Of a stretch of DNA of 64,000 nt, positions 2,156 to 51,588 are shown piece after piece. Made by a program: the position numbers and the translations under genes. Location of the stretch: contig JAPDPQ010000001.1 in assembly GCA_034506395.1 (NCBI GenBank), positions 4,435-68,434 on the forward strand, in the 5' to 3' direction. The DNA comes from Candidatus Zhuqueibacterota bacterium. Its GTDB lineage: Bacteria > Zhuqueibacterota > Zhuqueibacteria > Thermofontimicrobiales > Thermofontimicrobiaceae. A model generated the notes under the pieces. The model did not search any database. It was not told where the DNA came from and was given only the letters and a program-made list of their open reading frames with translations. Each line of letters starts with the position of its first letter. Position 1 is the stretch's first letter.

Positions 2156-2294
2156 CTGTTCTAATATGCGTCCCAGCAGCTACGGACCAATCATTTTTTC
2201 GAGTGAAACTTAGCTCTCGAGATTGAGCATCAACAAAATATGTCTTGTTTTTTTCATGAAAATTTCTATATTTCCGTTAACAAAAAACGGAAAT

Positions 2295-2870
2295 ATGGAT
2301 ATGGAATTGACAGAACAAGAATTGATCCGTCGTGCAAAGCAAGGAGATCGGGCAGCTCAGGCTAAAATTGTAAAAGACCATGAGAAAATGGTCTATAATT
2401 TGGGTCTAAAATTATTGGGCAACCCTGACCAAGCAGAGGGCGTTTTGCAAGAGACCTTCCTCAAGGTATTGCAAGCGCTTCCCAAATTCGAGGAAAAATC
2501 TCAGCTCTCGACTTGGATCTATCGCATCGCGACCAATCAGGCGCTCATGCGATTGCGTTCTCGCAAACGTCGTTTTATTTCAATTGAGGAAAATCCAGAA
2601 TTTGAGGATAAAGATTACACGACCTTCGCTCAATCGTTGGATGCAACCCCACTGGATGACGTGCTGAATCAGGAATTGCGAGAAAAGATGGATCGAGCGA
2701 TTGAGCAATTGCCAGATAATTATAAAACAGTGTTCGTGATGAAGGATATCGAAGGGATGGCATTGAAGGAAATTGCAGAAATTTTAGACCTGTCTTTGCC
2801 TGCAGTCAAATCCAATCTGCACCGCGCCAGAGTTACTCTTCGAAATAAATTGGCTGAAATGTGGAACTGA
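2295..2870 (+). CDS. RNA polymerase sigma-70 factor, ECF (sigma-24) subfamily
   Basis: Region 2 (AEGVLQETFLKVLQALPKF...STWIYRIATNQALMRLR) and region 4 (YKTVFVMKDIEGMALKEIAEILDLSLPAVKSNLHRAR) motifs are present. Confidence 0.85.
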   Translation: MDMELTEQELIRRAKQGDRAAQAKIVKDHEKMVYNLGLKLLGNPDQAEGVLQETFLKVLQALPKFEEKSQLSTWIYRIATNQALMRLRSRKRRFISIEENPEFEDKDYTTFAQSLDATPLDDVLNQELREKMDRAIEQLPDNYKTVFVMKDIEGMALKEIAEILDLSLPAVKSNLHRARVTLRNKLAEMWN

Positions 2871-2880
2871 GGAATTTGCG

Positions 2881-3114
2881 ATGGAATGTTTTGAGTCTCT
2901 GGAAAAAATTTGTGAAGCGCTTGGAGAAGATATCGATAGCCCAATGTGCAAAGAGGTTGAGGAGCATTTGCGCAATTGCCCCCGCTGTTGCGCCCACGTC
3001 GATTCGGTCCGCAAGGTCGTTCGGCTTTATCGACAGATTGGCGATGCGGAGGTGCCTGTAGCCGTGGACGAACGATTGTGGAAAGTGCTCAATCTTTCAA
3101 AGCCACAAGACTGA
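2881..3114 (+). CDS. Zinc-dependent anti-sigma factor (ZAS family, ChrR/RsrA-like N-terminal domain)
   Basis: Starts 11 nt after the sigma gene. Contains the H-x3-C-x2-C motif (EEHLRNCPRCC) plus an upstream Cys. Small 77-aa soluble protein. Confidence 0.65.
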   Translation: MECFESLEKICEALGEDIDSPMCKEVEEHLRNCPRCCAHVDSVRKVVRLYRQIGDAEVPVAVDERLWKVLNLSKPQD

Positions 3115-3368
3115 AGCTTGGCGCAAACCAGCTTCTATCTTTGAGCCCTACTGTTGCGCGCAGCAAATTATTATTATCCCACCGAACCAAACTAAATTCA
3201 TTTTCAAATGCAGTTCAGCCCTCGCTTCCGTTCTTTTGACCCTCCACATTTTGACTCGATCATTCGTCCGCCTTTATGCGCGGAATTACCTTTGGTGACT
3301 TTATATTCATGACTACAATAAGATCGATGCTTGGTGATGAGAAGATGGCAAAAGGCACGATTATTCGC

Positions 3369-3397
3369 TTGACAGATTGCCGATTATTTTGTATATT
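3369..3397 (+). promoter_or_regulatory. Sigma-70-like promoter candidate (TTGACA-N17-TATATT) about 70 nt upstream of the rpiB-deoC fusion gene
   Basis: TTGACA at 3369-3374, a 17-nt spacer, then TATATT at 3392-3397. The same hexamer pair and spacing recur upstream of rpsT. Confidence 0.4.
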
Positions 3398-3469
3398 ACC
3401 GCCGTTTTTAAAATGCATCGCGCATGTGAGAGATCAACCATGTAACAAACGAGAAAGATTCGGAATCAG

Positions 3470-4876
3470 ATGAGCACCCAGCCGGGAATTAAAATCCGAA
3501 AAATTGCTATCGGCGCCGACCATGCGGGATTTGAGCTCAAGGAGAAGCTCAAAAAATATCTTGCTGATCGAGGGCATCATCTTTTTGATTGTGGAACTTT
3601 CAGCACCGAATCCGTGGATTATCCGAAGATCGCCTTTCAGGTTGCACAATTGGTGAGCAGAGGCGAATATGAATTGGGAATCATGATCGACGGTGCGGGG
3701 ATTGGTTCGGCGATGGCAGCCAATAAGGTCCCCGGTATTCGAGCGGCTCTCTGTTACGATCTTTCGACCGCACGCAATAGTCGCGAGCACAACAACGCCA
3801 ATGTCCTCACTCTGGGGGGTGGGCTGATCGGTTTTGAATTGGCCAAACAGATCGTCGATACCTGGCTGGCATCAGAGTGCACAGTCGATCGACACCTGCG
3901 CCGAGTACAGATGATCCATGACATCGAACAAGGAAAATTCACTGTGAATCAGATAACGATGCCTCCAGGTCCCTCATCTGGGTTGGCAATTTCCGAGGAA
4001 GACGTTAAGAAAATCGTTTCGAGAGTCCAAACTTTATTACAGCAGCAGATGGGAACTGGTGCGATGTGGACATCCGCTAGTTGTCAAAATCCCACATGCA
4101 ATTCGTGCGGCCAATGTGCGAATAAGGCCCCTGATGCCGTTCGTCAATTTATTTCCATTGGTGCTGCGCGCATCTCTAATGCTCCAGGTGGCATCGGTGC
4201 CCCGCAGGACATCGCCAAATTTATTGACCACACGCTGCTCAAGCCAGAAGCTACGATTTCGGATATCGAACGGGTTTGTCAGGAGGCAGTGAAATATCAA
4301 TTTGCAGCGGTGTGTATTAATCCCTGCTATGTGAAATTGGCGCATGAATTGACACGTGGATCCAATGTAAAAGTTTGTAGCGTGGTTGGGTTTCCGCTCG
4401 GGGCAAGCATCACCGAGATTAAAGCCCTGGAGGCTCGGCGAGCGATTCGCGACGGGGCGAAGGAGATCGATATGGTAATCAACATCGGTGCACTCAAAAG
4501 CGACAATGATGAATTGGTGTTTCGGGACATCCGGACTGTGGTGGATGCTTGTGTGGATGGAAGCGCAATCTGCAAGGTTATCATTGAAGCAGCGCTCTTG
4601 ACCGATGAAGAGAAAGTGAGGGCGTGCGAGCTGGCAAAGCGGGCGCGAGCCCATTATGTGAAAACGTCGACGGGATTCGGCCCCGGCGGTGCGACTGCGC
4701 ATGACGTCGCGCTGATGCGACAGGTGGTGAGCGGCACACGAATGGGCGTGAAGGCTGCGGGCGGCATCCGATCGCTGGCAGACGCACAAAAGATGATCGA
4801 AGCGGGGGCCACTCGGATCGGCGCCAGCGCTGGCGTGAAAATCGTCCAAGAAGCAGCAAAGGTGGCAAATCCCTGA
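3470..4876 (+). CDS. Bifunctional fusion: ribose-5-phosphate isomerase B (RpiB/LacAB) N-terminal domain + deoxyribose-phosphate aldolase (DeoC/DERA) C-terminal domain, with a Cys-rich linker
   Basis: N-terminus [17 protein letters not shown]...[28 protein letters not shown] (RpiB). C-terminus [12 protein letters not shown]...[10 protein letters not shown]...VKTSTGFG...AGGIRS (DeoC, with the Schiff-base Lys region). The linker holds [20 protein letters not shown] and [12 protein letters not shown]. Confidence 0.85.
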
Positions 4877-5063: not shown

Positions 5064-5693
5064 GTGGTTGACCTACGCGCTTATGTCTTTTTGGACAATC
5101 TTCAGCCGCAATACGCCGCCTTTTTGGGCACGGTGGCACAAGGGTTCCTGCCAATCGCCCACATGGCGTCGCTTTATGTCGAGATCTCCCCAGGGATCGA
5201 AATCAATCGTATCACGGATATCGCTTTGAAATCGACTCGGGTAACGCCGGGGATGCAAATTGTGGAACGCCTTTATGGTTTGCTTGAGATCCATTCTGAG
5301 TCTCAGGCGGACGTTCGGCAGGCTGGTCAGGCGATTTTGGACGCGTTGGGTTTAAAGGAAGAAGATCGCTGGAAGCCGAAGATTTACTCCAGCCAGGTGA
5401 TCCGACGAATTGATGACCATCAGACGCAATTGATTAATCGCATGCGCCACGGCAACATGATCATTCCGGGCCAGACATTGTATGTGATGGAAGTTGCCCC
5501 GGCAGCTTATGCCGCACTGGCAGCGAACGAAGCGGAAAAGGCCGCCGAAATTAATATCCTAGAGGTTCGAGCTTTTGGCAGTTTTGGACGCGTTTATCTG
5601 GGAGGAGAGGAACGCGATATCGACGTGGGGTGGCGCGCGGCTGTTCATGCCATTGAAAGCGTCACTGGCAAAATGTTTGAAGGAGCGTCTTAG
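5064..5693 (+). CDS. BMC shell protein, BMC-T with tandem circularly permuted BMC domains (PduB/EutL-like)
   Basis: Two repeats each end in a G-x-x-x-DV-x-x-A motif ([20 protein letters not shown] and [21 protein letters not shown]). GTG start follows an AAGGAGAG SD. Sits in the shell-gene cluster. Confidence 0.65.
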
Positions 5694-6062: not shown

Positions 6063-6383
6063 ATGGCCGAAGCTTTAGGAATGATTGAATGTCGTAGTTT
6101 TCCAGCAATGGTGGAAGCTGCAGATGCCATGGTTAAGGCTGCCAAGGTTGAGTTGGTCAGTTACGAGAAAACTGGGGGAGGATACGTCACTGCGATCATC
6201 CGTGGGGATGTTGCTGCGGTAAAGGCCGCTTGCGAAGCTGGACAAGCTGGTGCCGCCAAAGTGGGTGAGGTCGTTGCCGTGCATATTATCGCTCGGCCGC
6301 ACAGCAATGTGGACCTGGTATTGCCATTGGGCAGAAAGGAACAGGTAGCCGCAGAGCTGAAGAAAACCAAGCGCGATGAATAA
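6063..6383 (+). CDS. BMC shell protein BMC-H (PduA/EutM/CcmK family hexamer)
   Basis: [77 protein letters not shown] is the canonical Pfam00936 sequence. Confidence 0.95.
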
Positions 6384-6612: not shown

Positions 6613-6912
6613 ATGGTATTAGCCAAAGTAATTGGGACCGTGGTCGCCACGCGAAAAGAAAAGAGCATGGAAGGGCTCAAATTCCTGCTTTTGCGACAGG
6701 TCGACCTCGATGGCAACGAGATTGGGGGTCATATCGTTGCTGCTGATGCTGTTGGTGCAGGTCTGGGCGAAATGGTGCTTTATGCCACTGGTAGCTCGGC
6801 TCGACAAACCGTAATGACTGATAAGCGGCCTTGCGATGCGGTCATTATGGCCATTGTGGATAACTGGGAAGTGAACGGACAGATCAAATACAAAAAAGGA
6901 CAACATGATTGA
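6613..6912 (+). CDS. BMC vertex protein BMC-P (EutN/PduN/CcmL family), copy 1
   Basis: [31 protein letters not shown]...[25 protein letters not shown] is a typical pentamer protein. 99 aa. Confidence 0.9.
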
Positions 6913-7027: not shown

Positions 7028-7594
7028 TTGGATCGACCTTTTTTAATCGGCAAAAAGATCTATCTCCGACCAGTAGAGCCTGAGGATGCGGCATTTCTCG
7101 CTCGGGGGGAAAATCACCCAGCGGTGCGCGAGGCGTTATTTCTGGCATTCCCCGTGAGTATGGGAACTGAGCTGGAGAAGATCGAGCAATTCATCAAATC
7201 CAAAGAAGCAATTGTGCTGATCATTGTAGACCAGCAGACGAATCAACCAGTCGGCCAGACCGCATTCTTTCGCATCGATTTCGTCAGCCGAGCGGCCGTT
7301 TTTTATCTGGCAATCCTCGATCCGAGCCATTGGTCGAAGGGGTATGGCTCGGAGGCCACACAACTCATGGTTGATTACGCATTCGAGACGCTCAATCTCA
7401 ATCGCATCCAGCTTCATGTCTGCGCCGAAAATACCCCTGCCATTCGGATTTATGAGCGCGCTGGATTCAAAAAAGAGGGAGTTTTACGACAGGCTATGTT
7501 TCGCAACGGGGCTTATGTGGATTTCTGGGTGATGGGCATCTTGCGGAGCGATTGGTCGGTGCGATCTCAAAATAGCCAAGTCTTTTCGGCATAA
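7028..7594 (+). CDS. GNAT family N-acetyltransferase (RimJ/RimL-like), embedded in the BMC operon
   Basis: IYLRPVEPEDAAFLA...QPVGQTAFF...WSKGYGSEATQLMVDYAFETLNLNRIQLHVCAENTPAIRIYERAGFKKEG is the acetyl-CoA-binding motif A region. Apparent TTG start. Confidence 0.75.
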   Translation: MDRPFLIGKKIYLRPVEPEDAAFLARGENHPAVREALFLAFPVSMGTELEKIEQFIKSKEAIVLIIVDQQTNQPVGQTAFFRIDFVSRAAVFYLAILDPSHWSKGYGSEATQLMVDYAFETLNLNRIQLHVCAENTPAIRIYERAGFKKEGVLRQAMFRNGAYVDFWVMGILRSDWSVRSQNSQVFSA

Positions 7595-7741: not shown

Positions 7742-9187
7742 TTGTCTTTCCTTGGTGAAAATCAGATCGAAACGATCGCCCAAAAAATTGTGGAGATCAT
7801 TATTGGCAAGAGCTCAGTGCCGGACGCGGGTATAAGGAGTAGCTCGGTCTTTCGTTCAGGCTGGTTGGGGATTTTCCCCACCATCGATGAAGCCGTGACC
7901 GCGACTTCGATCGCTCAGCGGCAATTGACCAGCATGACGCTCCGAAAGCGAGATGAGATCATCGCCAGTATCCGAGCCATGATGCTGGAACATGCGCGGG
8001 AGTTGGCCGAATTCGCCGTTGCAGAGACAGGGTTGGGCCGCGTCGAAGATAAGATTGCCAAAAATAAATTGGTGAGCGAGAAGACGCCTGGGACAGAAGA
8101 TCTCTATCCGATTGCCCGATCTGGAGACCACGGGCTAAGCTTGTTCGAGCCAGCGCCTTATGGCGTTATTGGCGCCATCACGCCAATTACCAACCCCACT
8201 TCTACGATCATCTGCAACACGATCGGAATGGTTGCAGCGGGCAACGGGGTGGTTTTCAACGTTCATCCTGGGGCAAAAAACACCTCAATCCAAAATATCC
8301 ATTTAATAAACCAGGCTATTATCCAAGCTGGTGGGCCCGTGAATTTGGTCAGTGGCATAACCGAGCCAACAATTGCAACGGCACAGCAATTGATGCGCCA
8401 TCCTGGGATACGAATTTTGGTCATCACAGGCGGAGGTGCTGTGGTCCGAGAAGCGATGAACAGTGGCAAGCGAGCCATTTGCGCTGGGCCCGGCAATCCA
8501 CCTGTGGTAGTTGATGAAACCGCTGATTTGGAGCGCGCTGGCGAGTTCATCGTGAAAGGCGCATCGTTCGACAATAACATCATCTGTGTGGATGAAAAGG
8601 AACTCATCGTGGTTGAGGCAGTGGCAGACCAATTGCTCAGGATCATGCAGAACAAAGGGGCGATCTTGCTAAAACCCCAGCTTCTCCCCCAGCTCGAGCA
8701 ATTATTGTTCGAGAAAACGAACGGGCCGGCCAAGCCAGGGATGATAAATAAAAGCTTGATCGGCAAAAATGCCAATTTGATCCTCTCGAAATTGGGGCTA
8801 TCGGTCGATGATCGGATTCGATTGGCCGTCATCGAGGTCGATCGCACCCATCCGCTGGTCTGGACCGAACAGATGATGCCAATTTTGCCGATGGTGCGGG
8901 TGGCGAATGCGGATGAGGCAATCGATTTGGCAAAACAGGTAGAAGGTGGAAATTATCATACTGCGGTTATGTATTCCCGAAATCTGGACAATCTCAGCCG
9001 GATGGCCCGGGAAATTAACACGACAATTTTTGTGAAAAACGGTCCCGCCTATGCTGGATTAGGATTTGGCGGCGAGGGATACACTTCTTTTTCTATCGCC
9101 AGCCCAACGGGAGAGGGCTTAACAGGTCCGCGCAGTTTCTCAAGAGAGCGGCGTTGCGTGTTGGTAGATCATTTTCGGATCGTTTAA
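7742..9187 (+). CDS. CoA-acylating aldehyde dehydrogenase (PduP/EutE family) with an N-terminal encapsulation-peptide-like helix
   Basis: Full-length similarity to EutE/PduP, with the catalytic Cys context NNIICVDEKELIV. N-terminal QIETIAQKIVEIIIG amphipathic helix, then a Ser/Gly-rich linker before the ALDH core. TTG start with a GGAGCG SD. Confidence 0.9.
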   Translation: MSFLGENQIETIAQKIVEIIIGKSSVPDAGIRSSSVFRSGWLGIFPTIDEAVTATSIAQRQLTSMTLRKRDEIIASIRAMMLEHARELAEFAVAETGLGRVEDKIAKNKLVSEKTPGTEDLYPIARSGDHGLSLFEPAPYGVIGAITPITNPTSTIICNTIGMVAAGNGVVFNVHPGAKNTSIQNIHLINQAIIQAGGPVNLVSGITEPTIATAQQLMRHPGIRILVITGGGAVVREAMNSGKRAICAGPGNPPVVVDETADLERAGEFIVKGASFDNNIICVDEKELIVVEAVADQLLRIMQNKGAILLKPQLLPQLEQLLFEKTNGPAKPGMINKSLIGKNANLILSKLGLSVDDRIRLAVIEVDRTHPLVWTEQMMPILPMVRVANADEAIDLAKQVEGGNYHTAVMYSRNLDNLSRMAREINTTIFVKNGPAYAGLGFGGEGYTSFSIASPTGEGLTGPRSFSRERRCVLVDHFRIV

Positions 9188-9188
9188 T

Positions 9189-9812
9189 ATGAAACTATAC
9201 CCTGCAATTGCGCTGATCGAGTTTAGTAGCATTGCCACCGGAGTAATTGCTGGCGATGCGATGATCAAAAGAGCGCCGATTTCCATGTTAAAGGCTGGCA
9301 CGGTCAGCCGAGGAAAATATCTGGTGATGATTGCTGGTAGCACAGCAGCGGTCGAGGAATCTTATCGGGCTGGTCTAAGCGTCGGCGAAGCTGCGGTCAT
9401 CGATAAGGTTTTTCTGCCTGATGTGCATCCGCAGGTGCTCGACGCTATCCTTGGAGCAAGAAAAAAAATCAGCTCCGAGGCACTCGGGCTGATCGAAACC
9501 GCATCTATTGCCGCGACGATCGCCGCCGCTGATGCTGGCATCAAAGGGGCGATGGTCGATATCATCGAAATTCGGCTGGGCGACGCATTGGGCGGCAAGG
9601 CATTTGTGATGATGAACGGAACAGTCCACGACGTCACCGCTGCAGTTACCATTGGGCTGAAAGCGATCTCCAATGAAGCGCTTTGGCGCAATCATATCAT
9701 CATCCCATCGTTGCATCACGAAATGGCCCGTCAGATCGACCGTTCGAGCCGATTTGCCCTGGTAGAATATCAAAAATTAGCTGGAGACGAGAGCGAACAT
9801 GTTACTGGGTAA
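9189..9812 (+). CDS. BMC shell protein BMC-T, tandem canonical BMC domains (PduT-like)
   Basis: Two BMC domains (AIALIEFSSIATGVIAGDAMIKRA... and EALGLIETASIAATIAAADAGIKGA...). ATG lies 1 nt after the AldDH stop. No Fe-S-ligand Cys seen in domain 1. Confidence 0.85.
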   Translation: MKLYPAIALIEFSSIATGVIAGDAMIKRAPISMLKAGTVSRGKYLVMIAGSTAAVEESYRAGLSVGEAAVIDKVFLPDVHPQVLDAILGARKKISSEALGLIETASIAATIAAADAGIKGAMVDIIEIRLGDALGGKAFVMMNGTVHDVTAAVTIGLKAISNEALWRNHIIIPSLHHEMARQIDRSSRFALVEYQKLAGDESEHVTG

Positions 9813-10089
9813 AGTGATCGGCACTGTTACGCCCTGCGTGGTTTACCCCGGACTCGAAGGCGTTCCGCTTCTGCTGGTTCAGCCGCTGAGTAAAAACTCC
9901 AAAGCGGTCGGCAAGCCCATTGTCGCCTGCGATGCCACCCGAATGGCTGGTCCAGGAGAACTGATCTATTACGAGGGCGGCCGCGAGGCAGCGCTGGCAT
10001 TAGATCCCTGGTTCGTCCCAGTGGATCACACCATCATTGGCATTGTGGATGGCGTCCATCTAATCGATGAAAGCTCTCAGTCCGAGTGA
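9799..10089 (+). CDS. BMC vertex protein BMC-P, copy 2
   Basis: MLLGKVIGTVTPCVVYPGLEGVPLLLVQPL...IVACDATRMAGPGELIYYEGG. Overlaps the BMC-T stop by 14 nt. Confidence 0.85.
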   Translation: MLLGKVIGTVTPCVVYPGLEGVPLLLVQPLSKNSKAVGKPIVACDATRMAGPGELIYYEGGREAALALDPWFVPVDHTIIGIVDGVHLIDESSQSE

Positions 10090-10319: not shown

Positions 10320-10592
10320 GTGATTATCGGCAAAGTCGCTGGAGAAATCTACTCCACGATCAACCACAGTTTCTATGATCAAAAAAAACTGCTGATCGTG
10401 GACAAATTGGACCTAACTGGAACGCCCACAGGCGACTATTTGATCGCAGTAGATTCCGTCGATGCTGGGCTCGGTGAAACGGTATTGGTCATTGATGAAG
10501 GCAATTCGGCCCGACAGGTAGTAAGCGATCCCAATGCGCCAATCCGCTCAATCATTATCGGGATCATCGATGCCGTGCGCATTGAGAGGTGA
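10320..10592 (+). CDS. BMC vertex protein BMC-P, copy 3 (GTG start)
   Basis: IIGKVAGEIYSTINHSFYDQKKLLIVDKLD...LIAVDSVDAGLGETVLVIDEGNSAR. 90 aa. Confidence 0.8.
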   Translation: MIIGKVAGEIYSTINHSFYDQKKLLIVDKLDLTGTPTGDYLIAVDSVDAGLGETVLVIDEGNSARQVVSDPNAPIRSIIIGIIDAVRIER

Positions 10593-10840: not shown

Positions 10841-11527
10841 ATGGCGAATGAATGGCAATTGCGACGGGAGATCGTCGCGATTGGCAAAAAGGCTTACGAA
10901 CGCGGGCTGGTGACGGCCACAGATGGGAATATCAGCGTGCGAGTCATGGGAGATCGTTTTCTGATCACACCGAGCGGCAGTTGCCTCGGAGAATTGGCAC
11001 CCGAACAATTGGTTTATGTCGATTTTGAAGGCAAGACATTATCTGGCGGTAAGCCAACTGGAGAGCTGGCCATGCACCTGGCTGCTTATCGAGAGCGGCC
11101 AGACATCCATGCCGTCTTGCATGCACACCCACCAATTACCACGGGCTTTACCATCGCTGGCGAATCACTGGCGCAATGCGTCATCCCCGAGGTTGTGGTG
11201 ATCTTCGGGACCATCCCTACTACGGAATATGCCACTATTTCAACTGAAGAGGGTGCCAAAGTCATTCGGGAATTGATCCGCGACCATGATGCTTTGATAT
11301 TGGATCGGCATGGGACAATTACAGTGGGAAAAACCCTCATCGACGCATATCGCAAACTCGAGAAGGTCGAATATGCCGCCCAGGTCACCCTGGTTGCCAA
11401 ACAATTGGGCAAAGTGAAAACCTTATCGCGTGAACAAATTCAAAAATTGGAAGCCGTCAGGCAAAAATATGGCTATCAGGGCCGAAAATCGCTATGCGAG
11501 GCATGTGGCCTCTGCAATATTTCATGA
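10841..11527 (+). CDS. Class II aldolase/adducin-family protein (FucA/RhaD/AraD/MtnB-like) with a C-terminal extension
   Basis: ATDGNISVRVMGDRFLITPSG...KPTGELAMHLAAYRERPDIHAVLHAHPP...LDRHGTITVG includes the Zn-binding His triad. The C-terminus adds SREQIQKLEAVRQKY...CEACGLC. Confidence 0.85.
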   Translation: MANEWQLRREIVAIGKKAYERGLVTATDGNISVRVMGDRFLITPSGSCLGELAPEQLVYVDFEGKTLSGGKPTGELAMHLAAYRERPDIHAVLHAHPPITTGFTIAGESLAQCVIPEVVVIFGTIPTTEYATISTEEGAKVIRELIRDHDALILDRHGTITVGKTLIDAYRKLEKVEYAAQVTLVAKQLGKVKTLSREQIQKLEAVRQKYGYQGRKSLCEACGLCNIS

Positions 11528-11694: not shown

Positions 11695-12588
11695 ATGAAG
11701 GAGAACAAATTTTTGACTGCAAATCAGCAAGAACCGATCCAATCCACATACGACTGTATCCCCTGTGCTATCGGGAGCCTGATCACTCTATTTAAAAAAG
11801 GACTGGTTTCAGAAAGGGATCAGGAAATCGCCATGCGAGCATTATTGCGTTATCTCAGCACCATTGATTTCCATCAATCCCCTCCCCAAATCGGTCAACA
11901 GATGCAACGGATCATTCGACACGTGCTCAATAATCCTGATCCGTATTTAGAAATCAAACAGCAATTCAATCGCTTGCTTCTCGATCATTACGTTGAATTA
12001 AAAGCATGGGTGGACCAGGCGGCAGATCCATTTCAGATGGCATTGCGATTGTCCATCGCTGGAAACGTGATCGATTTCGGTCCGAATCAACGCTTTGATG
12101 TCCACCAAACATTGGAACGGGCAAAGACTATTGTCCTGGCGATCGATGATTCAGAGCCTTTGCGCCAGGCCATCTCGAAAGCAACGCTACTTCTCTATTT
12201 GGGAGATAATGCTGGCGAAATCGTGTTGGATCGTATTTTCCTGGAAACGATTAACCATCCCAATGTCTATTTTGCTGTTCGCAGTGCGCCCATCATCAAT
12301 GACGCATTGCTGGAAGACGCAATCATGGTAGGAATCGACAAAATTGCCCATGTCATCACCAATGGGGATGATGCGCCTGGGACAATCTTAGAGAACACCT
12401 CAGCCCAATTTAAGACAATTTTTGACCAAGCGGATCTGATCATTTCAAAAGGCCAGGGCAATTATGAGGGTCTTAGCTGCGTTGATAAAAATATCTTCTT
12501 TTTGCTAATGACCAAATGCGAGCATGTCGCTAATCATCTTGGAGTAAAAAAAGGTGATTTTGTGGTGAAACAAGGACAAGGTTGTTGA
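11695..12588 (+). CDS. DUF89 / ARMT1-like damage-control sugar-phosphate phosphatase family protein
   Basis: 297 aa with characteristic segments SIAGNVIDFG, LGDNAGEIVLD and KGQGNYEGL. Confidence 0.65.
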   Translation: MKENKFLTANQQEPIQSTYDCIPCAIGSLITLFKKGLVSERDQEIAMRALLRYLSTIDFHQSPPQIGQQMQRIIRHVLNNPDPYLEIKQQFNRLLLDHYVELKAWVDQAADPFQMALRLSIAGNVIDFGPNQRFDVHQTLERAKTIVLAIDDSEPLRQAISKATLLLYLGDNAGEIVLDRIFLETINHPNVYFAVRSAPIINDALLEDAIMVGIDKIAHVITNGDDAPGTILENTSAQFKTIFDQADLIISKGQGNYEGLSCVDKNIFFLLMTKCEHVANHLGVKKGDFVVKQGQGC

Positions 12589-36933: not shown

Positions 36934-38229
36934 TTAGTGAATGGAGCCCAATATCAATCTTGGGACCTGACATGGTGCTTCATCAATTTCAATTGCCGAT
37001 CGTAAAGCGTGTTCAATTTGCTCAGCATTCATCACTTTTGAGTGATAGATTTCAGCCAAAGGCTCACCGCGTTCCACGCGATCACCGACTTTATGGCACA
37101 AAACGATCCCCGCGGTGGGATCAATGGGATCTCCAATTTTTGCCCGACCAGCGCCGAGTTCCATGGACAACAAGCCGATCTTCAGCGCATTTATCTCGTG
37201 AACATAACCTGATTTGGTGCTGAGCACGGTTTCATGATATTGGCTGAAGGGATATCGAGCAGGATTTTCAACGACTGAAATATCACCTCCCTGGGCAGTT
37301 ACCATCTCAATAAATTTATTATAGGCAGCTCCATTGGCTAATAAAAATTGCAATTGATCAGAATGATGAATTGGCTTTCCCGCCAATCGCAGCATCTCTG
37401 CCGTGAGCGCCAAAGTAATTTCAACTAAGTCATTTGGGCCACCACCATGCAATGTATCAATTGCTTCTTTAACCTCCAGCCAATTCCCAACCGCATAACC
37501 TAAAGGCTGATCCATGGCCGTCATCATGGCCGTAGTGGGCAGGCCGAAGCTTTTTGCAATCGAGATGAATGTCTCGGCTAATTGGTTCGCTCGGTCAAAT
37601 GAGCTAAAAAATGCTCCACGACCAGTTTTAACATCCAACACCAGGGCCTTTGCACCTTCTGCGATCTTTTTGCTCAATATGCTGGCAACAACTAAAGGGA
37701 TCGATGGCACAGTTCCTGTGCGATCGCGTAACGCATAAATCTTTTTGTCCGCCGGGACAATCTCATCGGTTTGCCCAATCATGGCAAGGCCGATTTTTTC
37801 AACTTGTTGAACGAACTCTGTCAAGCTCAACTGGGTTCGAAAGCCGGGGATCGATTCTAATTTGTCCAATGTCCCACCAGAATGGCCCAATCCACGACCA
37901 GACATCATGGGAACTGCTACCCCTGCCGCGGCGGCCAATGGGGCCAAGACCAATGACACCTTATCACCGACCCCTCCAGTGCTGTGCTTATCGACAGGCA
38001 TCCGATCTAAATGGCTGAAGTCTACCGTCCGGCCCGATTGAACCATGAGCTTGGTCAATGCTTGAGTCTCTTCTATGCTCATGCCCTGAAAATAAATGGC
38101 CATCAATAAAGCGGCCATTTGGTAGTCTGGGACCAAACCAGCGACATAGCCATCGATTATTGATTTCAACTCTGCCTCTGAAAGGTGAGATCCGTCTCGC
38201 TTTTTCACAATCAATTGTTCAATATTCAT
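36934..38229 (-). CDS. deoA: Thymidine / pyrimidine-nucleoside phosphorylase
   Basis: IIVKKRDG..LS..E..SII..GYV...KHSTGGVGDKVSLVLAPLAAA...MMSGRGLGHSGGTLDKLESIPGF. Confidence 0.9.
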   Translation of the reverse strand: MNIEQLIVKKRDGSHLSEAELKSIIDGYVAGLVPDYQMAALLMAIYFQGMSIEETQALTKLMVQSGRTVDFSHLDRMPVDKHSTGGVGDKVSLVLAPLAAAAGVAVPMMSGRGLGHSGGTLDKLESIPGFRTQLSLTEFVQQVEKIGLAMIGQTDEIVPADKKIYALRDRTGTVPSIPLVVASILSKKIAEGAKALVLDVKTGRGAFFSSFDRANQLAETFISIAKSFGLPTTAMMTAMDQPLGYAVGNWLEVKEAIDTLHGGGPNDLVEITLALTAEMLRLAGKPIHHSDQLQFLLANGAAYNKFIEMVTAQGGDISVVENPARYPFSQYHETVLSTKSGYVHEINALKIGLLSMELGAGRAKIGDPIDPTAGIVLCHKVGDRVERGEPLAEIYHSKVMNAEQIEHALRSAIEIDEAPCQVPRLILGSIH

Positions 38230-38319
38230 CGTTCCTCTTCCTTTTTCCAAAAAACAAAGAAGCAATCAAACAACGATTGCTTCTTTAATTTTGTTTTCAT
38301 TCTATAGCTCTATTTCGTG

Positions 38320-39681
38320 TCAACTAAGAGCGCTCAATTGCTTAATCTCCTCAACAAATTGATAAGCCAGTGCATTGGCTTGGTCCATGGTTTTCGCCTC
38401 AGCGTAGATTCGGATAATTGGCTCTGTATTGGACGGTCGAATTTGCACCCAGCGATCGGGCCATAGGATCTTCAAACCGTCCGTCAGATCGAGACGCTGG
38501 TTATTGTATTTATTGGTCATCGTCTTCAATAACTCGCCAATATTCACATCGGCCAATTCAATGCGACTCTTAGCGATCACATATTGCGGCAAAGATCGTT
38601 GCAATTCGCCAATAGAGCCCCCAAATTCAGCCAATTGCTGCAAAGTTAAGGCAATTCCCACTGGTGCATCTCGGCCTAAATGAAGCTCCGGCAAGATAAC
38701 TCCTCCGTTTCCTTCCCCACCGATCACCGCCTTCACTTCCTTCATCTTTTTTGCGACATGAATTTCCCCAACTTTGGTTCGAAACACCTCAGCGCCATAT
38801 TTGGCAGCAATTTCGTCGATCGCCTGGGTGACCGAGACATTGACCGCCACTGGCCCGTGTCTTTTTTGAAGCACATAATTCACAGCTAACGCCAAAGTAT
38901 ACTCCTCGCCCAGGGGATTGCCGTGCTCATCGACAATGGCGAGCCGATCGACATCCGGATCCACTGCAAAGCCCAGATCGGCACCAGTGCGCTTCACTGT
39001 CTGGCATAATTCTTTGAGATTCTCTGGCAATGGTTCTGGTGGATGCGAAAATAACCCAGTTGGATCCTCATTGATAAATATCACATCGCATCCCAGGCGT
39101 TGCAATAATTGGGGTAAAATGGTCCCACCTGCTCCATTCACACAATCTACGACAACCCTAAATTTCCGGGCAGCTATCTTCTCTGGTGAAATCAAATCTA
39201 ATCGCAAAATGGCATCGATATGATGCCGAATAGCGGTGTTATTAAGTTCGATCTTTCCAATTTGATCCCAAGGGACAAAGCGAAATTCTGCTTCGTCGGC
39301 AAGCTGAATGACTTTCTTGCCTTGTATCTCATCGAGGAACATGCCAGAGGCATCGATCAATTTCAACGCGTTCCATTCGATTGGATTATGGCTGGCTGTG
39401 ATGGCAATGCCTCCACGCGCCTTAAAATGCTCCACCGCCAATTCTACCGTTGGCGTTGGGCAAATGCCGATATCAATTACATCGCATCCCATGGCCGTCA
39501 GGCCAGAGAGCACCGCATGCTTGACCATGGGTCCAGTGATTCGGGAGTCTCTTCCTACCACCACCTTTCCTCCACCCAAATAAGCCCCGAATGCCTGGGC
39601 GTATCGGAGGACCACCTCTGGGGTTAACCCATCTCCAACCACGCCTCTTATTCCCGAGATGCTAACCATTAATTTCGCCAC
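38320..39681 (-). CDS. Alpha-D-phosphohexomutase family protein (PGM/PMM/GlmM-like); candidate phosphopentomutase by context
   Basis: SGIRGVVG...GIAITASHNP (phosphoserine loop)...FAVDPDVDRLAIVDEHGN (metal loop)...GGEGNGG. Confidence 0.8.
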   Translation of the reverse strand: MAKLMVSISGIRGVVGDGLTPEVVLRYAQAFGAYLGGGKVVVGRDSRITGPMVKHAVLSGLTAMGCDVIDIGICPTPTVELAVEHFKARGGIAITASHNPIEWNALKLIDASGMFLDEIQGKKVIQLADEAEFRFVPWDQIGKIELNNTAIRHHIDAILRLDLISPEKIAARKFRVVVDCVNGAGGTILPQLLQRLGCDVIFINEDPTGLFSHPPEPLPENLKELCQTVKRTGADLGFAVDPDVDRLAIVDEHGNPLGEEYTLALAVNYVLQKRHGPVAVNVSVTQAIDEIAAKYGAEVFRTKVGEIHVAKKMKEVKAVIGGEGNGGVILPELHLGRDAPVGIALTLQQLAEFGGSIGELQRSLPQYVIAKSRIELADVNIGELLKTMTNKYNNQRLDLTDGLKILWPDRWVQIRPSNTEPIIRIYAEAKTMDQANALAYQFVEEIKQLSALS

Positions 39682-49224: not shown

Positions 49225-51588
49225 GTGACGCCGAGAGTTGAGAAATTAAGAAGACAAAGCCTGGAGACTCCGACATCGATTACAGCAGAGCGAGCGGTTT
49301 TAATCACCGAATTCTATCGATCGCATGATGCATTGACTATCTCAGCGCCGATGCGCCGGGCATTGGCGTTCAAATATCTGATGGAACATAAAGCCGTTTG
49401 CATCAACGATGGTGAGTTGATCGTTGGCGAGCGCGGACCGGCTCCTCGGTCAACCCCAACATTCCCAGAGATCTGCTGCCATACGATTGAGGAGCTTGAG
49501 ATCCTCAATTCGAGGGAAAAAGTGAGCTACGCGGTCTCTGAAGAAACCAAGCGGATTTATCGCGAGCAAATTATTCCCTATTGGAAGGGAAAGACTATTC
49601 GGGAAAAGATCTTTGAGGAGATGACCGATGAGTGGAAAGCGGCCTATCGCGCTGGGATTTTTACCGAGTTCATGGAGCAACGCGCTCCTGGTCATACAGC
49701 ATTAGATGACAAAATTTACTTGAAAGGCTTTTTGGGATTTAAGAAAGAGATCGAAGAGCAACTGAGTCGATTGGATTATCTAAACGATCCGGAAGCGTAC
49801 GAGAAGCAGGAACAGCTCAAAGCCATGGCCATTGCTGCGGATGCCATCATTCGCTATGCCGAACGACATGCCGAACTCGCCCAACAAATGGCCCGCAAAG
49901 AATCTGATCCAGTCAGGAAACGCGAACTTGAGCAAATTGCAGAAATCTGCGCCTATGTCCCAGCCAATCCGCCACGAACCTTCTGGGAGGCGCTGCAGGC
50001 GTACTGGTTCACCCATGTTGGGGTGATTTCGGAATTAAACACCTGGGACGCCATCTGCCCTGGCCGATTCGATCAGCATTTTTATCCGTTTTACAAAAAG
50101 GACATTGAGTCTGGTCTATTGTCTCGAGAGGCCGCTAAGGAGCTTCTGCAATGCTTCTGGATCAAATTCAACAATCAGCCCGCCCCTCCAAAGGTGGGCG
50201 TCACTGCTCAGGAGAGCGGGACTTATAACGATTTTGCGCTGATTTCGCTGGCCGGACAAACGCGCGATGGAAAAGACGGTGCCAACGAGCTCTCCTATTT
50301 ATGCCTCGATGTATTGGAGGAATTGCGGCTGGTGCAGCCCCACTGTTGCGTTCAATTGAGCCAGCAAAATCCCGATCGCCTGCTGAAGCGTGCGCTCGAG
50401 GTCAATCGCACTGGTCTGGGTCAACCCTCGATCTTCAATCATGACGCCGTGGTCCAGGAGCTTATTCGCCAGGGCAAATCTATCGAAGACGCGAGGACCG
50501 GCGGCACCAGTGGGTGTGTGGAGACCGGGGCATTGGGCAAGGAAAATTACAATCTCACCGGCTACTTTAATATGATGAAAGTGCTGGAAATCACGCTCCA
50601 CAATGGCGTCGATCCCCGTACTGGAGAAAAGATCGGGATCGAAACCGGGGATCCCACTCGATTTGAAAATTTTGAGCAATTATTCGAGGCTTATAAAAGA
50701 CAGCTTCGGCACTTCATCGACATTAAGATCCGAGGCAATAACATCATCGAAAAAATCTATGCGCAATATATGCCCACGCCGTTTCTTTCATTGTTGATTA
50801 GCGATTGCATTCAACGTGGTAAAGATTATCACAATGGCGGAGCGCGCTACAATACAAGCTACATCCAGGGCGTTGGTTTGGGCAGCATTACGGACGCCAT
50901 GAGCTCATTGAAATATCATGTTTACGATCATCGCAAGCTCACCATGGAGCAGATGCTCAGCGTCCTTAAAGATAATTATGAGGGCCATGAAAGGATTCGG
51001 CAGATGATGCGCTATCAGACACCCAAGTACGGCAATGACGATGATTATGCCGATGAGATTATGAAGCGGGTATTTGAAGCCTACTTTGAAGCGATCGATG
51101 GCAGGAAAAATATGAAAGGAGGAACTTATCGCATCAACTTGCTCCCGACGACGGTTCATGTCTACTTTGGCTCAGTGGTGGGAGCAACTCCCGATGGTCG
51201 AAAGGCAGGAGACGTACTCTCTGAAGGGGTGTCTCCAGTTCAGGGGGCGGATCGAAACGGTCCAACAGCAGTGATTAAATCGGTAGCCAAAATCGATCAT
51301 TTACGCACGGGCGGCACTTTGCTGAATCAGAAATTTTCACCTTCGCTACTGAGCAGCGATAACGGACTCGCTGGACTCGCCCATTTGGTACGATCTTATT
51401 TTAAAATGAACGGACATCACATCCAATTTAATGTGGTGACCGCTGCTACGCTCCGAGCGGCTCAGCAGCACCCAGAGAAGTATCGCGACCTGATCGTTCG
51501 GGTGGCAGGATATAGCGATTATTTCTGCAACTTGAATAAAGGCCTGCAGGATGAGATCATCGCCAGGACCGAACATCAAAGCTTTTAG
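49225..51588 (+). CDS. Glycyl radical enzyme, PFL2 / dehydratase-eliminase type (Cys-x-Glu active site)
   Basis: 787 aa. C-terminal glycyl radical motif RVAGYSDYF. Active-site loop GGTSGCVETG. GTG start with an AGGAGCG SD. Confidence 0.9.
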   Translation: MTPRVEKLRRQSLETPTSITAERAVLITEFYRSHDALTISAPMRRALAFKYLMEHKAVCINDGELIVGERGPAPRSTPTFPEICCHTIEELEILNSREKVSYAVSEETKRIYREQIIPYWKGKTIREKIFEEMTDEWKAAYRAGIFTEFMEQRAPGHTALDDKIYLKGFLGFKKEIEEQLSRLDYLNDPEAYEKQEQLKAMAIAADAIIRYAERHAELAQQMARKESDPVRKRELEQIAEICAYVPANPPRTFWEALQAYWFTHVGVISELNTWDAICPGRFDQHFYPFYKKDIESGLLSREAAKELLQCFWIKFNNQPAPPKVGVTAQESGTYNDFALISLAGQTRDGKDGANELSYLCLDVLEELRLVQPHCCVQLSQQNPDRLLKRALEVNRTGLGQPSIFNHDAVVQELIRQGKSIEDARTGGTSGCVETGALGKENYNLTGYFNMMKVLEITLHNGVDPRTGEKIGIETGDPTRFENFEQLFEAYKRQLRHFIDIKIRGNNIIEKIYAQYMPTPFLSLLISDCIQRGKDYHNGGARYNTSYIQGVGLGSITDAMSSLKYHVYDHRKLTMEQMLSVLKDNYEGHERIRQMMRYQTPKYGNDDDYADEIMKRVFEAYFEAIDGRKNMKGGTYRINLLPTTVHVYFGSVVGATPDGRKAGDVLSEGVSPVQGADRNGPTAVIKSVAKIDHLRTGGTLLNQKFSPSLLSSDNGLAGLAHLVRSYFKMNGHHIQFNVVTAATLRAAQQHPEKYRDLIVRVAGYSDYFCNLNKGLQDEIIARTEHQSF

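Follow-up and report, generated by a model that had tools for sequence, protein, structure and literature searches.

The window analysed here is a 64,000-nucleotide stretch of contig JAPDPQ010000001.1. We found that the first gene of an SPU3-type microcompartment locus in this candidate-division KSB1 bacterium encodes a fusion of an RPI-like domain (RPI, ribose-5-phosphate isomerase) with a deoxyribose-phosphate aldolase (DERA). The segment between the two domains carries a helix that resembles an encapsulation peptide (EP) and a loop with four cysteines. We lean slightly towards reading the protein as an SPU3 signature cargo enzyme whose Cys loop is a structural, non-catalytic metal centre, with Fe-S as the favoured metal. 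The gene and the parts of its product, in amino acids (aa), are as follows.

3470..4876, plus strand: RPI-DERA fusion gene, 468 aa; SPU-type microcompartment signature enzyme.
3497..3934, plus strand: RpiB/LacAB-like domain, aa 10-155 (Pfam, PDB, alignment with E. coli RpiB, pLDDT >90).
3935..3988, plus strand: variable low-confidence spacer from the RPI domain to the helix, aa 156-173 (alignment, AlphaFold2).
3989..4051, plus strand: conserved amphipathic helix, putative internal EP, aa 174-194 (alignment, AlphaFold2).
4052..4081, plus strand: hypervariable spacer, aa 195-204 (alignment, pLDDT <50).
4082..4117, plus strand: Cys cluster C205-x4-C210-x2-C213-G-x-C216, aa 205-216, then A-N-K-A-P221; putative metal (Fe-S or Zn) site.
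4118..4204, plus strand: anchor element of the DERA extension, aa 217-245 (helix, strand AARIS and NAPGG).
4205..4855, plus strand: DERA (class I aldolase) TIM barrel, aa 246-462 (PDB, DeoC alignment, Foldseek).

Translation of the open reading frame (ORF) at 3470-4876 on the plus strand gave one ATG-initiated frame of 468 codons with zero internal stops. In Pfam, LacAB_rpiB (PF02502) matched aa 12-149 (E = 2.4e-54, 183.5 bits against a curated cut-off of 24.7) and DeoC (PF01791) matched aa 250-460 (E = 6.6e-19, 68.9 bits). The PDB sequence search matched solved RpiB structures to aa 10-155 at 1e-41, and together with Foldseek it matched solved DERAs to aa 245-462 (best 1.6e-77, identity up to 63%); zero PDB sequence matches were found for aa 156-245. 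The AlphaFold2 model used was the run with a 73-sequence alignment, and an alignment-free model (pLDDT 38) was discarded. Foldseek against the PDB returned only DERA and RpiB for the fusion model, and the RpiB fold was recovered at TM 0.9-0.95 with a root-mean-square deviation of 1.1-1.9 Å.

The alignment with E. coli DeoC places the DERA catalytic residues Asp102, Lys167 (Schiff base) and Lys201 at D334, K398 and K428, all of which are invariant across the 73 homologues. In the alignment with E. coli RpiB, the catalytic base C66 corresponds to D74, while H99 is kept as H107. The architecture is that of two fused domains with an intact DERA active site, and the RpiB-like domain has lost its catalytic Cys. 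The initial annotation, which was made from the sequence alone, had described a single 468-aa ORF joining two complete domains. The unbroken frame and the Pfam and PDB matches bear out the joining, and the DERA domain is indeed complete, with its barrel and catalytic residues; the RpiB domain is complete in its fold, but not in its catalytic site. Dwyer, Sutter and Kerfeld (2024, Commun Biol, PMC11585597) reported that the catalytic Cys66 is replaced by Asp in all SPU RPIs, and that a stand-alone SPU RPI has negligible isomerase activity on ribose 5-phosphate.

The fusion could be an artefact of assembly or of a frameshift, with RPI and DERA being separate genes. This would fit the GenBank entries from KSB1 metagenome-assembled genomes (MAGs; MDZ7331688.1 and others), which carry only the last 227 aa, that is, the DERA from Ile242, whose codon is ATC (window 4193-4195). 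However, the frame is open in the window, the identical 468-aa protein was found on independent Logan contigs, and 120 of the 120 best homologues are unbroken RPI-DERA fusions of 425-523 aa. Such fusions are encoded in 53 of 80 species-level loci, from more than 15 taxonomic groups. A frameshift or stop between the domains, which the initial annotation had named as the result that would overturn it, was looked for and is absent. We rejected the artefact on these grounds, and its probability is practically nil. Dwyer and coworkers described start-site misannotation of microcompartment enzymes with extensions (PMC11585597), and the 227-aa call is a start-site artefact of the same kind. The public annotation starts at Ile242 and thereby hides the fusion together with its helix and Cys cluster.

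Axen et al. first noted the RPI-DERA (aldolase-isomerase) fusion in Marinimicrobia (2014, PMC4207490), and Dwyer and coworkers found it in 20 SPU3 loci. They reported that the inter-domain segment is an N-terminal extension common to all microcompartment DERAs, described it as a helix of ~25-30 residues with two low-confidence beta strands, and proposed the helix as an EP (PMC11585597). The segment that the initial annotation took for a "~90-aa linker" is this extension. The fusion and the internal helix as an EP candidate are already known and add nothing new; the window gene is a new KSB1 representative of the known SPU3 RPI-DERA family. It shares with the published SPU3 chimera (PMC11585597; PMC4207490) the domain order, the extension with an amphipathic helix between the domains, the Asp at the RPI catalytic Cys position and the absence of an N-terminal EP on the RPI. 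The locus type is also the same, with a CsoS1D-/CcmP-like BMC-T, a BMC-P triplet, an aldehyde dehydrogenase (AldDh) and a class II aldolase. The window copy comes from candidate division KSB1, and its loop has a ferredoxin-like set of four Cys (Cys4), also present in most stand-alone SPU DERAs, whereas the published account is silent on cysteines and metals. Cysteines or metals of the extension were unmentioned in the literature searched (including PMC4207490, PMC12747264 and the text of PMC11585597).

A 2025 bioRxiv preprint describes Flav+DERA fusions, termed "uncommon in BMC", in the SPU compartments of Hodarchaeales archaea, and GFP recruitment indicated that the archaeal inter-domain EPs are needed for shell association (PMC12747264). 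Both systems have a DERA signature enzyme with an N-terminal accessory domain, which is flavoprotein-like in the archaea and RpiB-like in the window. The archaeal EPs are predicted at termini or in inter-domain linkers, and GFP recruitment has shown that shell association depends on them. The preprint is silent on a Cys cluster; in the bacterial counterparts of Flav+DERA (P0125-P0155 and others), a Cys4 lies between the accessory domain and the DERA.

To describe the extension we used alignments of 121 fusions and of 150 representatives at 50% identity. Its parts, in order, are a variable spacer, a conserved helix, a hypervariable stretch ending in the Cys cluster, and the anchor. AlphaFold2 predicted the helix at aa 176-193, and the position given by the initial annotation (aa 174-194, nt 3989-4051) was exact. 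The motif [LI]SxxD[ILV]xxI[AV]xR[IV] is kept in 120 of 120 homologues, and every homologue conserves the i/i+3/i+4 hydrophobic pattern. The helix also resembles the N-terminal EP helices of the AldDh of the locus and of stand-alone SPU RPI and DERA. The initial annotation was right in placing an EP-like helix between the domains. "Strongly amphipathic" was too strong a term: the helix and its conserved pattern stand, but the amphipathicity is moderate (Eisenberg hydrophobic moment 0.44; 7.6% of shuffled versions of these 18 residues score as high).

The flanks of the helix are poorly conserved. Both aa 156-173 and aa 195-204 vary in sequence or length, and the former spacer was modelled at pLDDT 58-65, falling below 50 at aa 168-173. 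Any extension at all is missing from 52 of the 150 representative DERAs and from all PDB DERAs. Stand-alone SPU6 RPIs in the fetched loci bear N-terminal EP-like helices, and the fused RPI domain is without one. Terminal EPs of the Pdu, Eut and PVM systems (Aussignargues et al. 2015) are, as far as they are cited in PMC11585597, likewise short amphipathic helices with poorly conserved linkers; they are missing from non-compartment homologues, and similar helices occur on cargo of the same locus. Compared with these, the fusion helix is internal (aa 174-194 of 468) and is N-terminal to the DERA module only, and it leads to a Cys-rich loop and the anchor rather than to a plain linker. The published proposal that the internal helix would act as the EP of the fusion is reasonable.

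The anchor follows the consensus k-P-x-x-V-R-x-F-I-x-x-G-A-x-R-I-S-x-x-P-G, with G231 and R234 invariant, and runs into the first barrel strand IDHTLLKP. AlphaFold2 modelled aa 216-229 as helices and aa 235-237 as a strand, with pLDDT 67-81. The anchor resembles the last helix-strand of the barrel (aa 441-457, window 4790-4840), and hhalign matched the anchor (4118-4204) to the C-termini of plain DERAs over 24 columns (95.6%, E = 1.2e-8). It may have been left behind by a tandem duplication of DERA. Within the fusion protein alone, the pairwise match of the anchor to the barrel end was insignificant (p = 0.14), and we did not retain the anchor as an internal barrel repeat, which only the profile-profile comparison supports.

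The module of helix, Cys cluster, anchor and barrel was seen in three architectures: the RPI fusion, stand-alone DERAs and a flavoprotein-like fusion. Stand-alone DERAs with the module are ~300 aa long, for example the Chloroflexota SPU6 type with C-x3-C-x4-C-x3-C, a motif that we saw in 15 of 18 Chloroflexota loci. The third architecture (430-500 aa; P0125-P0155 and others; L084 10001-11386) consists of an N-terminal EP helix, a ~150-aa domain, Cys4, the anchor and the DERA barrel, and some members have weak Flavoprotein (PF02441) matches. P0130 shares this architecture without a PF02441 match; its classical SPU locus also encodes PTAC, PduS and a separate RPI. A C-terminal Tyr was observed in 8 of 8 members of the third architecture with full sequence inspected.

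The Cys cluster lies exactly where the initial annotation had put it (aa 205-216, nt 4082-4117). Chance would hardly produce it: of the 17,017 twelve-residue windows in the 59 ORFs of 100 aa or more from the 64-kb window, no other contains four or more Cys (binomial P ~1e-5 per window). Majority consensus in the loop is reached only by four Cys and one Gly. The Cys counts of the 121 close fusions are bimodal: at least four in 80, three in 3, two in 20 and 0-1 in 18. Among the 50%-identity representatives, 42 of 63 extended DERAs that keep the anchor have at least four Cys. With one genome per species, the 53 fusions divide into 13 with at least four Cys, 8 with three, 5 with two and 27 with 0-1; 21 of the 27 stand-alone species-level DERAs have at least four, and so do 34 of all 80 species-level loci. 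The spacing is mostly C-x3-8-C-x2-C-x2-C, with minorities of C-x2-C-x5-C-x3-C, C-x3-C-x4-C-x3-C and CxCCx3Cx3C.

Lack of conservation of the Cys residues had also been named beforehand as a refuting result, and here the outcome is mixed: the KSB1-like clade and most stand-alone SPU DERAs retain the four Cys, but only 0-1 Cys are left in 27 of the 53 fusions. Selection acts on the site in many lineages, and its loss from whole lineages shows that it is not essential. The earlier view that the cluster has no obvious catalytic role agrees with our analysis, since the Cys residues belong to neither catalytic site. Dwyer and coworkers showed that SPU6 DERA without its extension is a soluble, active enzyme (PMC11585597), and the extension of DERA is therefore not catalytic. 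The cluster is most likely a non-catalytic metal site of the DERA extension.

As to the metal, C210-N-S-C213-G-Q-C216-A-N-K-A220-P221 matches the ferredoxin register C-x2-C-G-x-C-x3-C-P, with the C-x2-C-x2-C core and the Gly present; the family consensus of the core is CxxCGxC. We favour Fe-S over Zn because this register (C-x2-C-G-x-C-x3-A-P) with its upstream Cys copies the ferredoxin motif. A profile of the Cys loop and anchor searched against the PDB returned DERA C-termini for the anchor and otherwise almost only 2x[4Fe-4S] proteins, including PsaC, ferredoxins, RnfB, PscB and the PFOR delta subunit, at E 0.03-0.3, values that are suggestive but fall short of significance. Of the 60 PDB matches listed, about two-thirds are Fe-S proteins and one is a zinc-ribbon protein. 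In hhalign, the C. pasteurianum ferredoxin scored 66% (E = 5.6e-5, partner stretch DTCIDCGNCANVCP), PsaC 50% (E = 1.6e-4) and rubredoxin 1.5% (E = 0.035). The ferredoxin and PsaC sequences used agree with the PDB matches.

It has been reported that a 16-mer with C-x3-C-x2-C-x2-C, and also the 11-mer CGGGCGGCGGC, assembles [4Fe-4S] in vitro (PMC10946529). The fusion shares with the ferredoxin motif CxxCxxCxxxCP and with this 16-mer maquette, KLCEGGCIACGACGGW, the C-x2-C-G-x-C with Gly after the second Cys. It has the Pro of the ferredoxin motif five residues past the third Cys, and like the maquette it has a fourth Cys a few residues upstream. The exact maquette spacing, C-x3-C-x2-C-x2-C, occurs in six family members. 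In the fusion, Ala replaces the fourth Cys of the ferredoxin motif, and the spacer after the upstream Cys is x4, compared with x3-x8 in relatives. The motif of the fusion is not set in a ferredoxin fold and has no significant Fer4 match, and any cluster there is putative. The upstream Cys205 is a possible substitute ligand. The residues at aa 194-212 were modelled at pLDDT <50, as expected if the loop needs a ligand to fold. Two further points in favour, both described below, are the anaerobic lifestyle implied by a glycyl radical enzyme of the host and the C-x2-C-G-x-C beside a helix in a second cargo enzyme of the locus. The suggestion of the initial annotation that the cysteines form a small metal or Fe-S knuckle stays plausible and has gained somewhat in strength. 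Binding of Fe-S has, in our estimate, about an even chance; binding of Zn is appreciably less probable and the lack of any metal is improbable. These estimates overlap with the finer division among the alternatives weighed below.

Several observations weigh against this interpretation. The fourth ferredoxin Cys is Ala220, before Pro221. All ferredoxin similarity scores lie below database-wide significance, and the Pfam Fer4 models gave no match to the isolated extension. The metal itself is putative. The cluster is missing or decayed in 7/7 Thermoanaerobaculia, 5/5 Woeseiaceae and 3/3 Verrucomicrobia, one or two Cys have been lost in different ways among Planctomycete sequences, and in other clades the loop is swapped for hairpin-like sequences (NIVCSDGKNVIIHYGH, FRYGECVVTCDGKDL, MDGRGVGVEK). 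Cys-less P0064/L002 and Cys-containing orthologues share locus synteny, and no Fe-S or flavin partner (PduS) was found among the window ORFs scanned with Pfam. On the side of the helix, the hydrophobic moment is statistically unexceptional, and encapsulation by the internal helix of bacterial RPI-DERA fusions is likewise a putative function. Finally, CxxCG is also the classical Zn or rubredoxin knuckle, and the lineage-variable spacing (x4-x2-x2, x2-x5-x3, x3-x4-x3, CxCCx3Cx3C) fits a cubane no better than it fits a tolerant Zn site.

The last two points would agree with a single structural Zn2+, in a mini zinc knuckle or treble-clef-like site, that rigidifies the junction of the EP helix and the DERA barrel without any Fe-S chemistry. 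The motif has one CxxCG knuckle and two further Cys within 12 residues. The spacings C-x2-C-x5-C-x3-C-helix and C-x3-C-x4-C-x3-C resemble a knuckle and the first turn of a helix. In Pfam, the isolated inter-domain segment matched only the AZUL Zn domain, weakly and below the cut-off (E 0.04). The Ignavibacteria/Elusimicrobia/Zixibacteria-like clade (L007, L023, P0052-P0082) has GGTC-x8-C-x10-H-Y-G-H instead of Cys4; both Cys and the second His are present in 10 of 10 listed sequences and the first His in 9 of 10. This variant class, described from alignments, could be an alternative Cys2His2 metal site of the type C...C...HxxH. Repeated replacement by metal-free hairpins, which together with variable spacing is typical of structural Zn sites, mirrors the C+/C- zinc ribbons of ribosomal proteins and of the adenylate kinase lid. 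However, the x2-x2 Cys, the Gly after the second and the Pro five past the third give the ferredoxin register and not a CxxC...CxxC pair, and the profile matches favour ferredoxins (50-66% in hhalign) over rubredoxin (1.5%). A Zn site is somewhat unlikely, although it is the alternative that we take most seriously.

It could also be that the loop binds no metal, being a flexible spacer with lineage-specific Cys or a source of disulfides that cross-link the cargo. The poor modelling of the loop and the loss of Cys in about half of the species-level orthologues, with the locus unchanged, would be explained in this way. However, four Cys are kept below 50% identity across the three architectures while the intervening residues all vary, and the counts are roughly all-or-none. 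The hosts are mostly anaerobes, and cytoplasmic disulfides are unlikely. We regard a metal-free loop as very improbable.

Returning to the structural metal centre, we suggest that C205, C210, C213 and C216 would chelate the metal and fold an otherwise disordered loop into a compact knuckle, and this knuckle would hold the EP helix in a set position with respect to the barrel and the anchor element. The role of the Cys loop would be structural or assembly-related and possibly redox- or O2-sensitive, non-catalytic, and dispensable in some lineages. From the architecture, the active site and the literature, we infer that the fusion is the signature enzyme that cleaves deoxyribose-5-phosphate. Following the SPU papers of 2014, 2021 and 2024, the neighbouring aldehyde dehydrogenase would convert acetaldehyde to acetyl-CoA, the RPI-like domain would be mainly a packaging partner, and the internal helix would be the EP for the entire fusion.

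Few bacterial microcompartments are as widespread as the SPU compartments, of which homologues also occur in Asgard archaea. If the Cys loop held Fe-S or Zn, this would explain the insolubility of full-length SPU DERA when it is produced aerobically in E. coli, offer a means of purifying and engineering cargo modules, and add a metal-dependent element to the EP concept. If the site were merely structural Zn or dispensable, it would be an ordinary detail of the family.

The other genes of the locus are as follows.

5064..5693, plus strand: CsoS1D-like double-stacking BMC-T (weak BMC Pfam match; syntenic L001 gene).
6063..6383, plus strand: BMC-H shell hexamer (Pfam, 5e-29).
6613..6912, plus strand: BMC-P pentamer 1 (Pfam, 4e-29).
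7028..7594: GNAT acetyltransferase, between BMC-P and the aldehyde dehydrogenase.
7742..9187, plus strand: AldDh, with N-terminal EP-like helix ENQIETIAQKIVEIIIGK at nt 7757-7810.
9189..9812, plus strand: BMC-T with tandem BMC domains (Pfam).
9799..10089, plus strand: BMC-P pentamer 2 (Pfam).
10320..10592, plus strand: BMC-P pentamer 3 (Pfam).
10841..11527, plus strand: class II aldolase (Pfam), with an EP-like helix and a Cys motif in its tail.

DERA and aldehyde dehydrogenase genes beside BMC-H/T and BMC-P genes mark the locus as SPU. By gene content as given in the literature, the subtype is SPU3, with a BMC-P triplet (three EutN_CcmL ORFs in Pfam), a CsoS1D/CcmP-like BMC-T(dp), and RPI fused to DERA. 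The gene order recurs in locus L001 (fusion 84% identical) and locus L002 (60%), and the 209-aa L001 gene syntenic to 5064..5693 carries PF27545 CsoS1D_N. Among the ~50 window ORFs scanned with Pfam, none was PduS, PTAC or an alcohol dehydrogenase (Fe-ADH).

The tail of the class II aldolase has an EP-like helix, LSREQIQKLEAVRQKY (nt 11423-11470), and then SLCEACGLC, that is, C-x2-C-G-x-C (nt 11495-11515). Of 120 aldolase homologues, 81 retain C-x2-C-x2-C in the tail, usually as C-x2-C-G-x-C; in a subgroup of 260 aa the motif comes after the core and is followed by a second EP helix at the terminus. When 83 loci were scanned for CxxCxxC, only DERA and the class II aldolase showed it recurrently. 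The literature searched holds no description of this tail motif. Coupling of the two Cys motifs was rejected: L002 is without the DERA cluster and keeps the aldolase motif, and L003 shows the reverse.

The occurrence of one ferredoxin-like motif on two non-redox cargo enzymes, in both cases beside EP-like helices, would be in line with redox-active Fe-S at both sites, serving as an electron path to re-oxidise the NADH that the aldehyde dehydrogenase produces or as an O2/redox switch of cargo condensation. With no PduS, PTAC or alcohol dehydrogenase in the locus, NAD+ recycling is unexplained, and in the sister architecture the Cys cluster comes directly after the flavoprotein-like domain. The cluster is also missing in lineages with many aerobes (Woeseiaceae, Verrucomicrobia, Acidimicrobiia), but this lifestyle correlation rests solely on MAG taxonomy. 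Against such a role, the locus has no NADH-binding or flavin module to feed the cluster. There would be no shell cluster to receive electrons, because the shell BMC-T proteins of the locus hold zero Cys. Furthermore, Cys-less and Cys-containing DERAs occur in identical loci, and the DERA and aldolase Cys states are uncoupled (L002, L003). This explanation is quite unlikely in our judgement. An obligatory redox partner was rejected on the Cys-less P0064/L002, which has the same locus, and on the 83-locus scan. The related idea that the EP-adjacent motifs of both enzymes (DERA in most SPU subtypes, the class II aldolase in the subtype seen here) bind [4Fe-4S], as a redox/O2 switch of condensation or encapsulation or as an electron conduit without PduS, is unlikely to nearly the same degree. 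If it were true, the "EP + Fe-S knuckle" would represent an encapsulation module of a new functional class.

Further observations were made in the neighbourhood of the locus. The GNAT acetyltransferase (7028-7594) is also present in L001 and is missing from L002. An ARMT1-like damage-control phosphatase (11695-12588) directly follows the class II aldolase and is found near the L001 locus too; it could handle sugar-phosphate side products. Immediately upstream of the fusion gene lie an ECF sigma factor and small unannotated ORFs (2223-3473), and L001 keeps the order aconitase, OsmC, ECF sigma, small ORF and fusion. This sigma factor may be a regulator of the locus. At a distance of about 32 kb, a pyrimidine-nucleoside phosphorylase adjoins a PGM/PMM-family mutase (36934-39681, minus strand), and it is plausible that the two supply deoxyribose-1-phosphate and then deoxyribose-5-phosphate to the compartment. 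A pyruvate-formate-lyase-like glycyl radical enzyme is encoded at window 49225-51588, which suggests an anaerobic lifestyle of the host.

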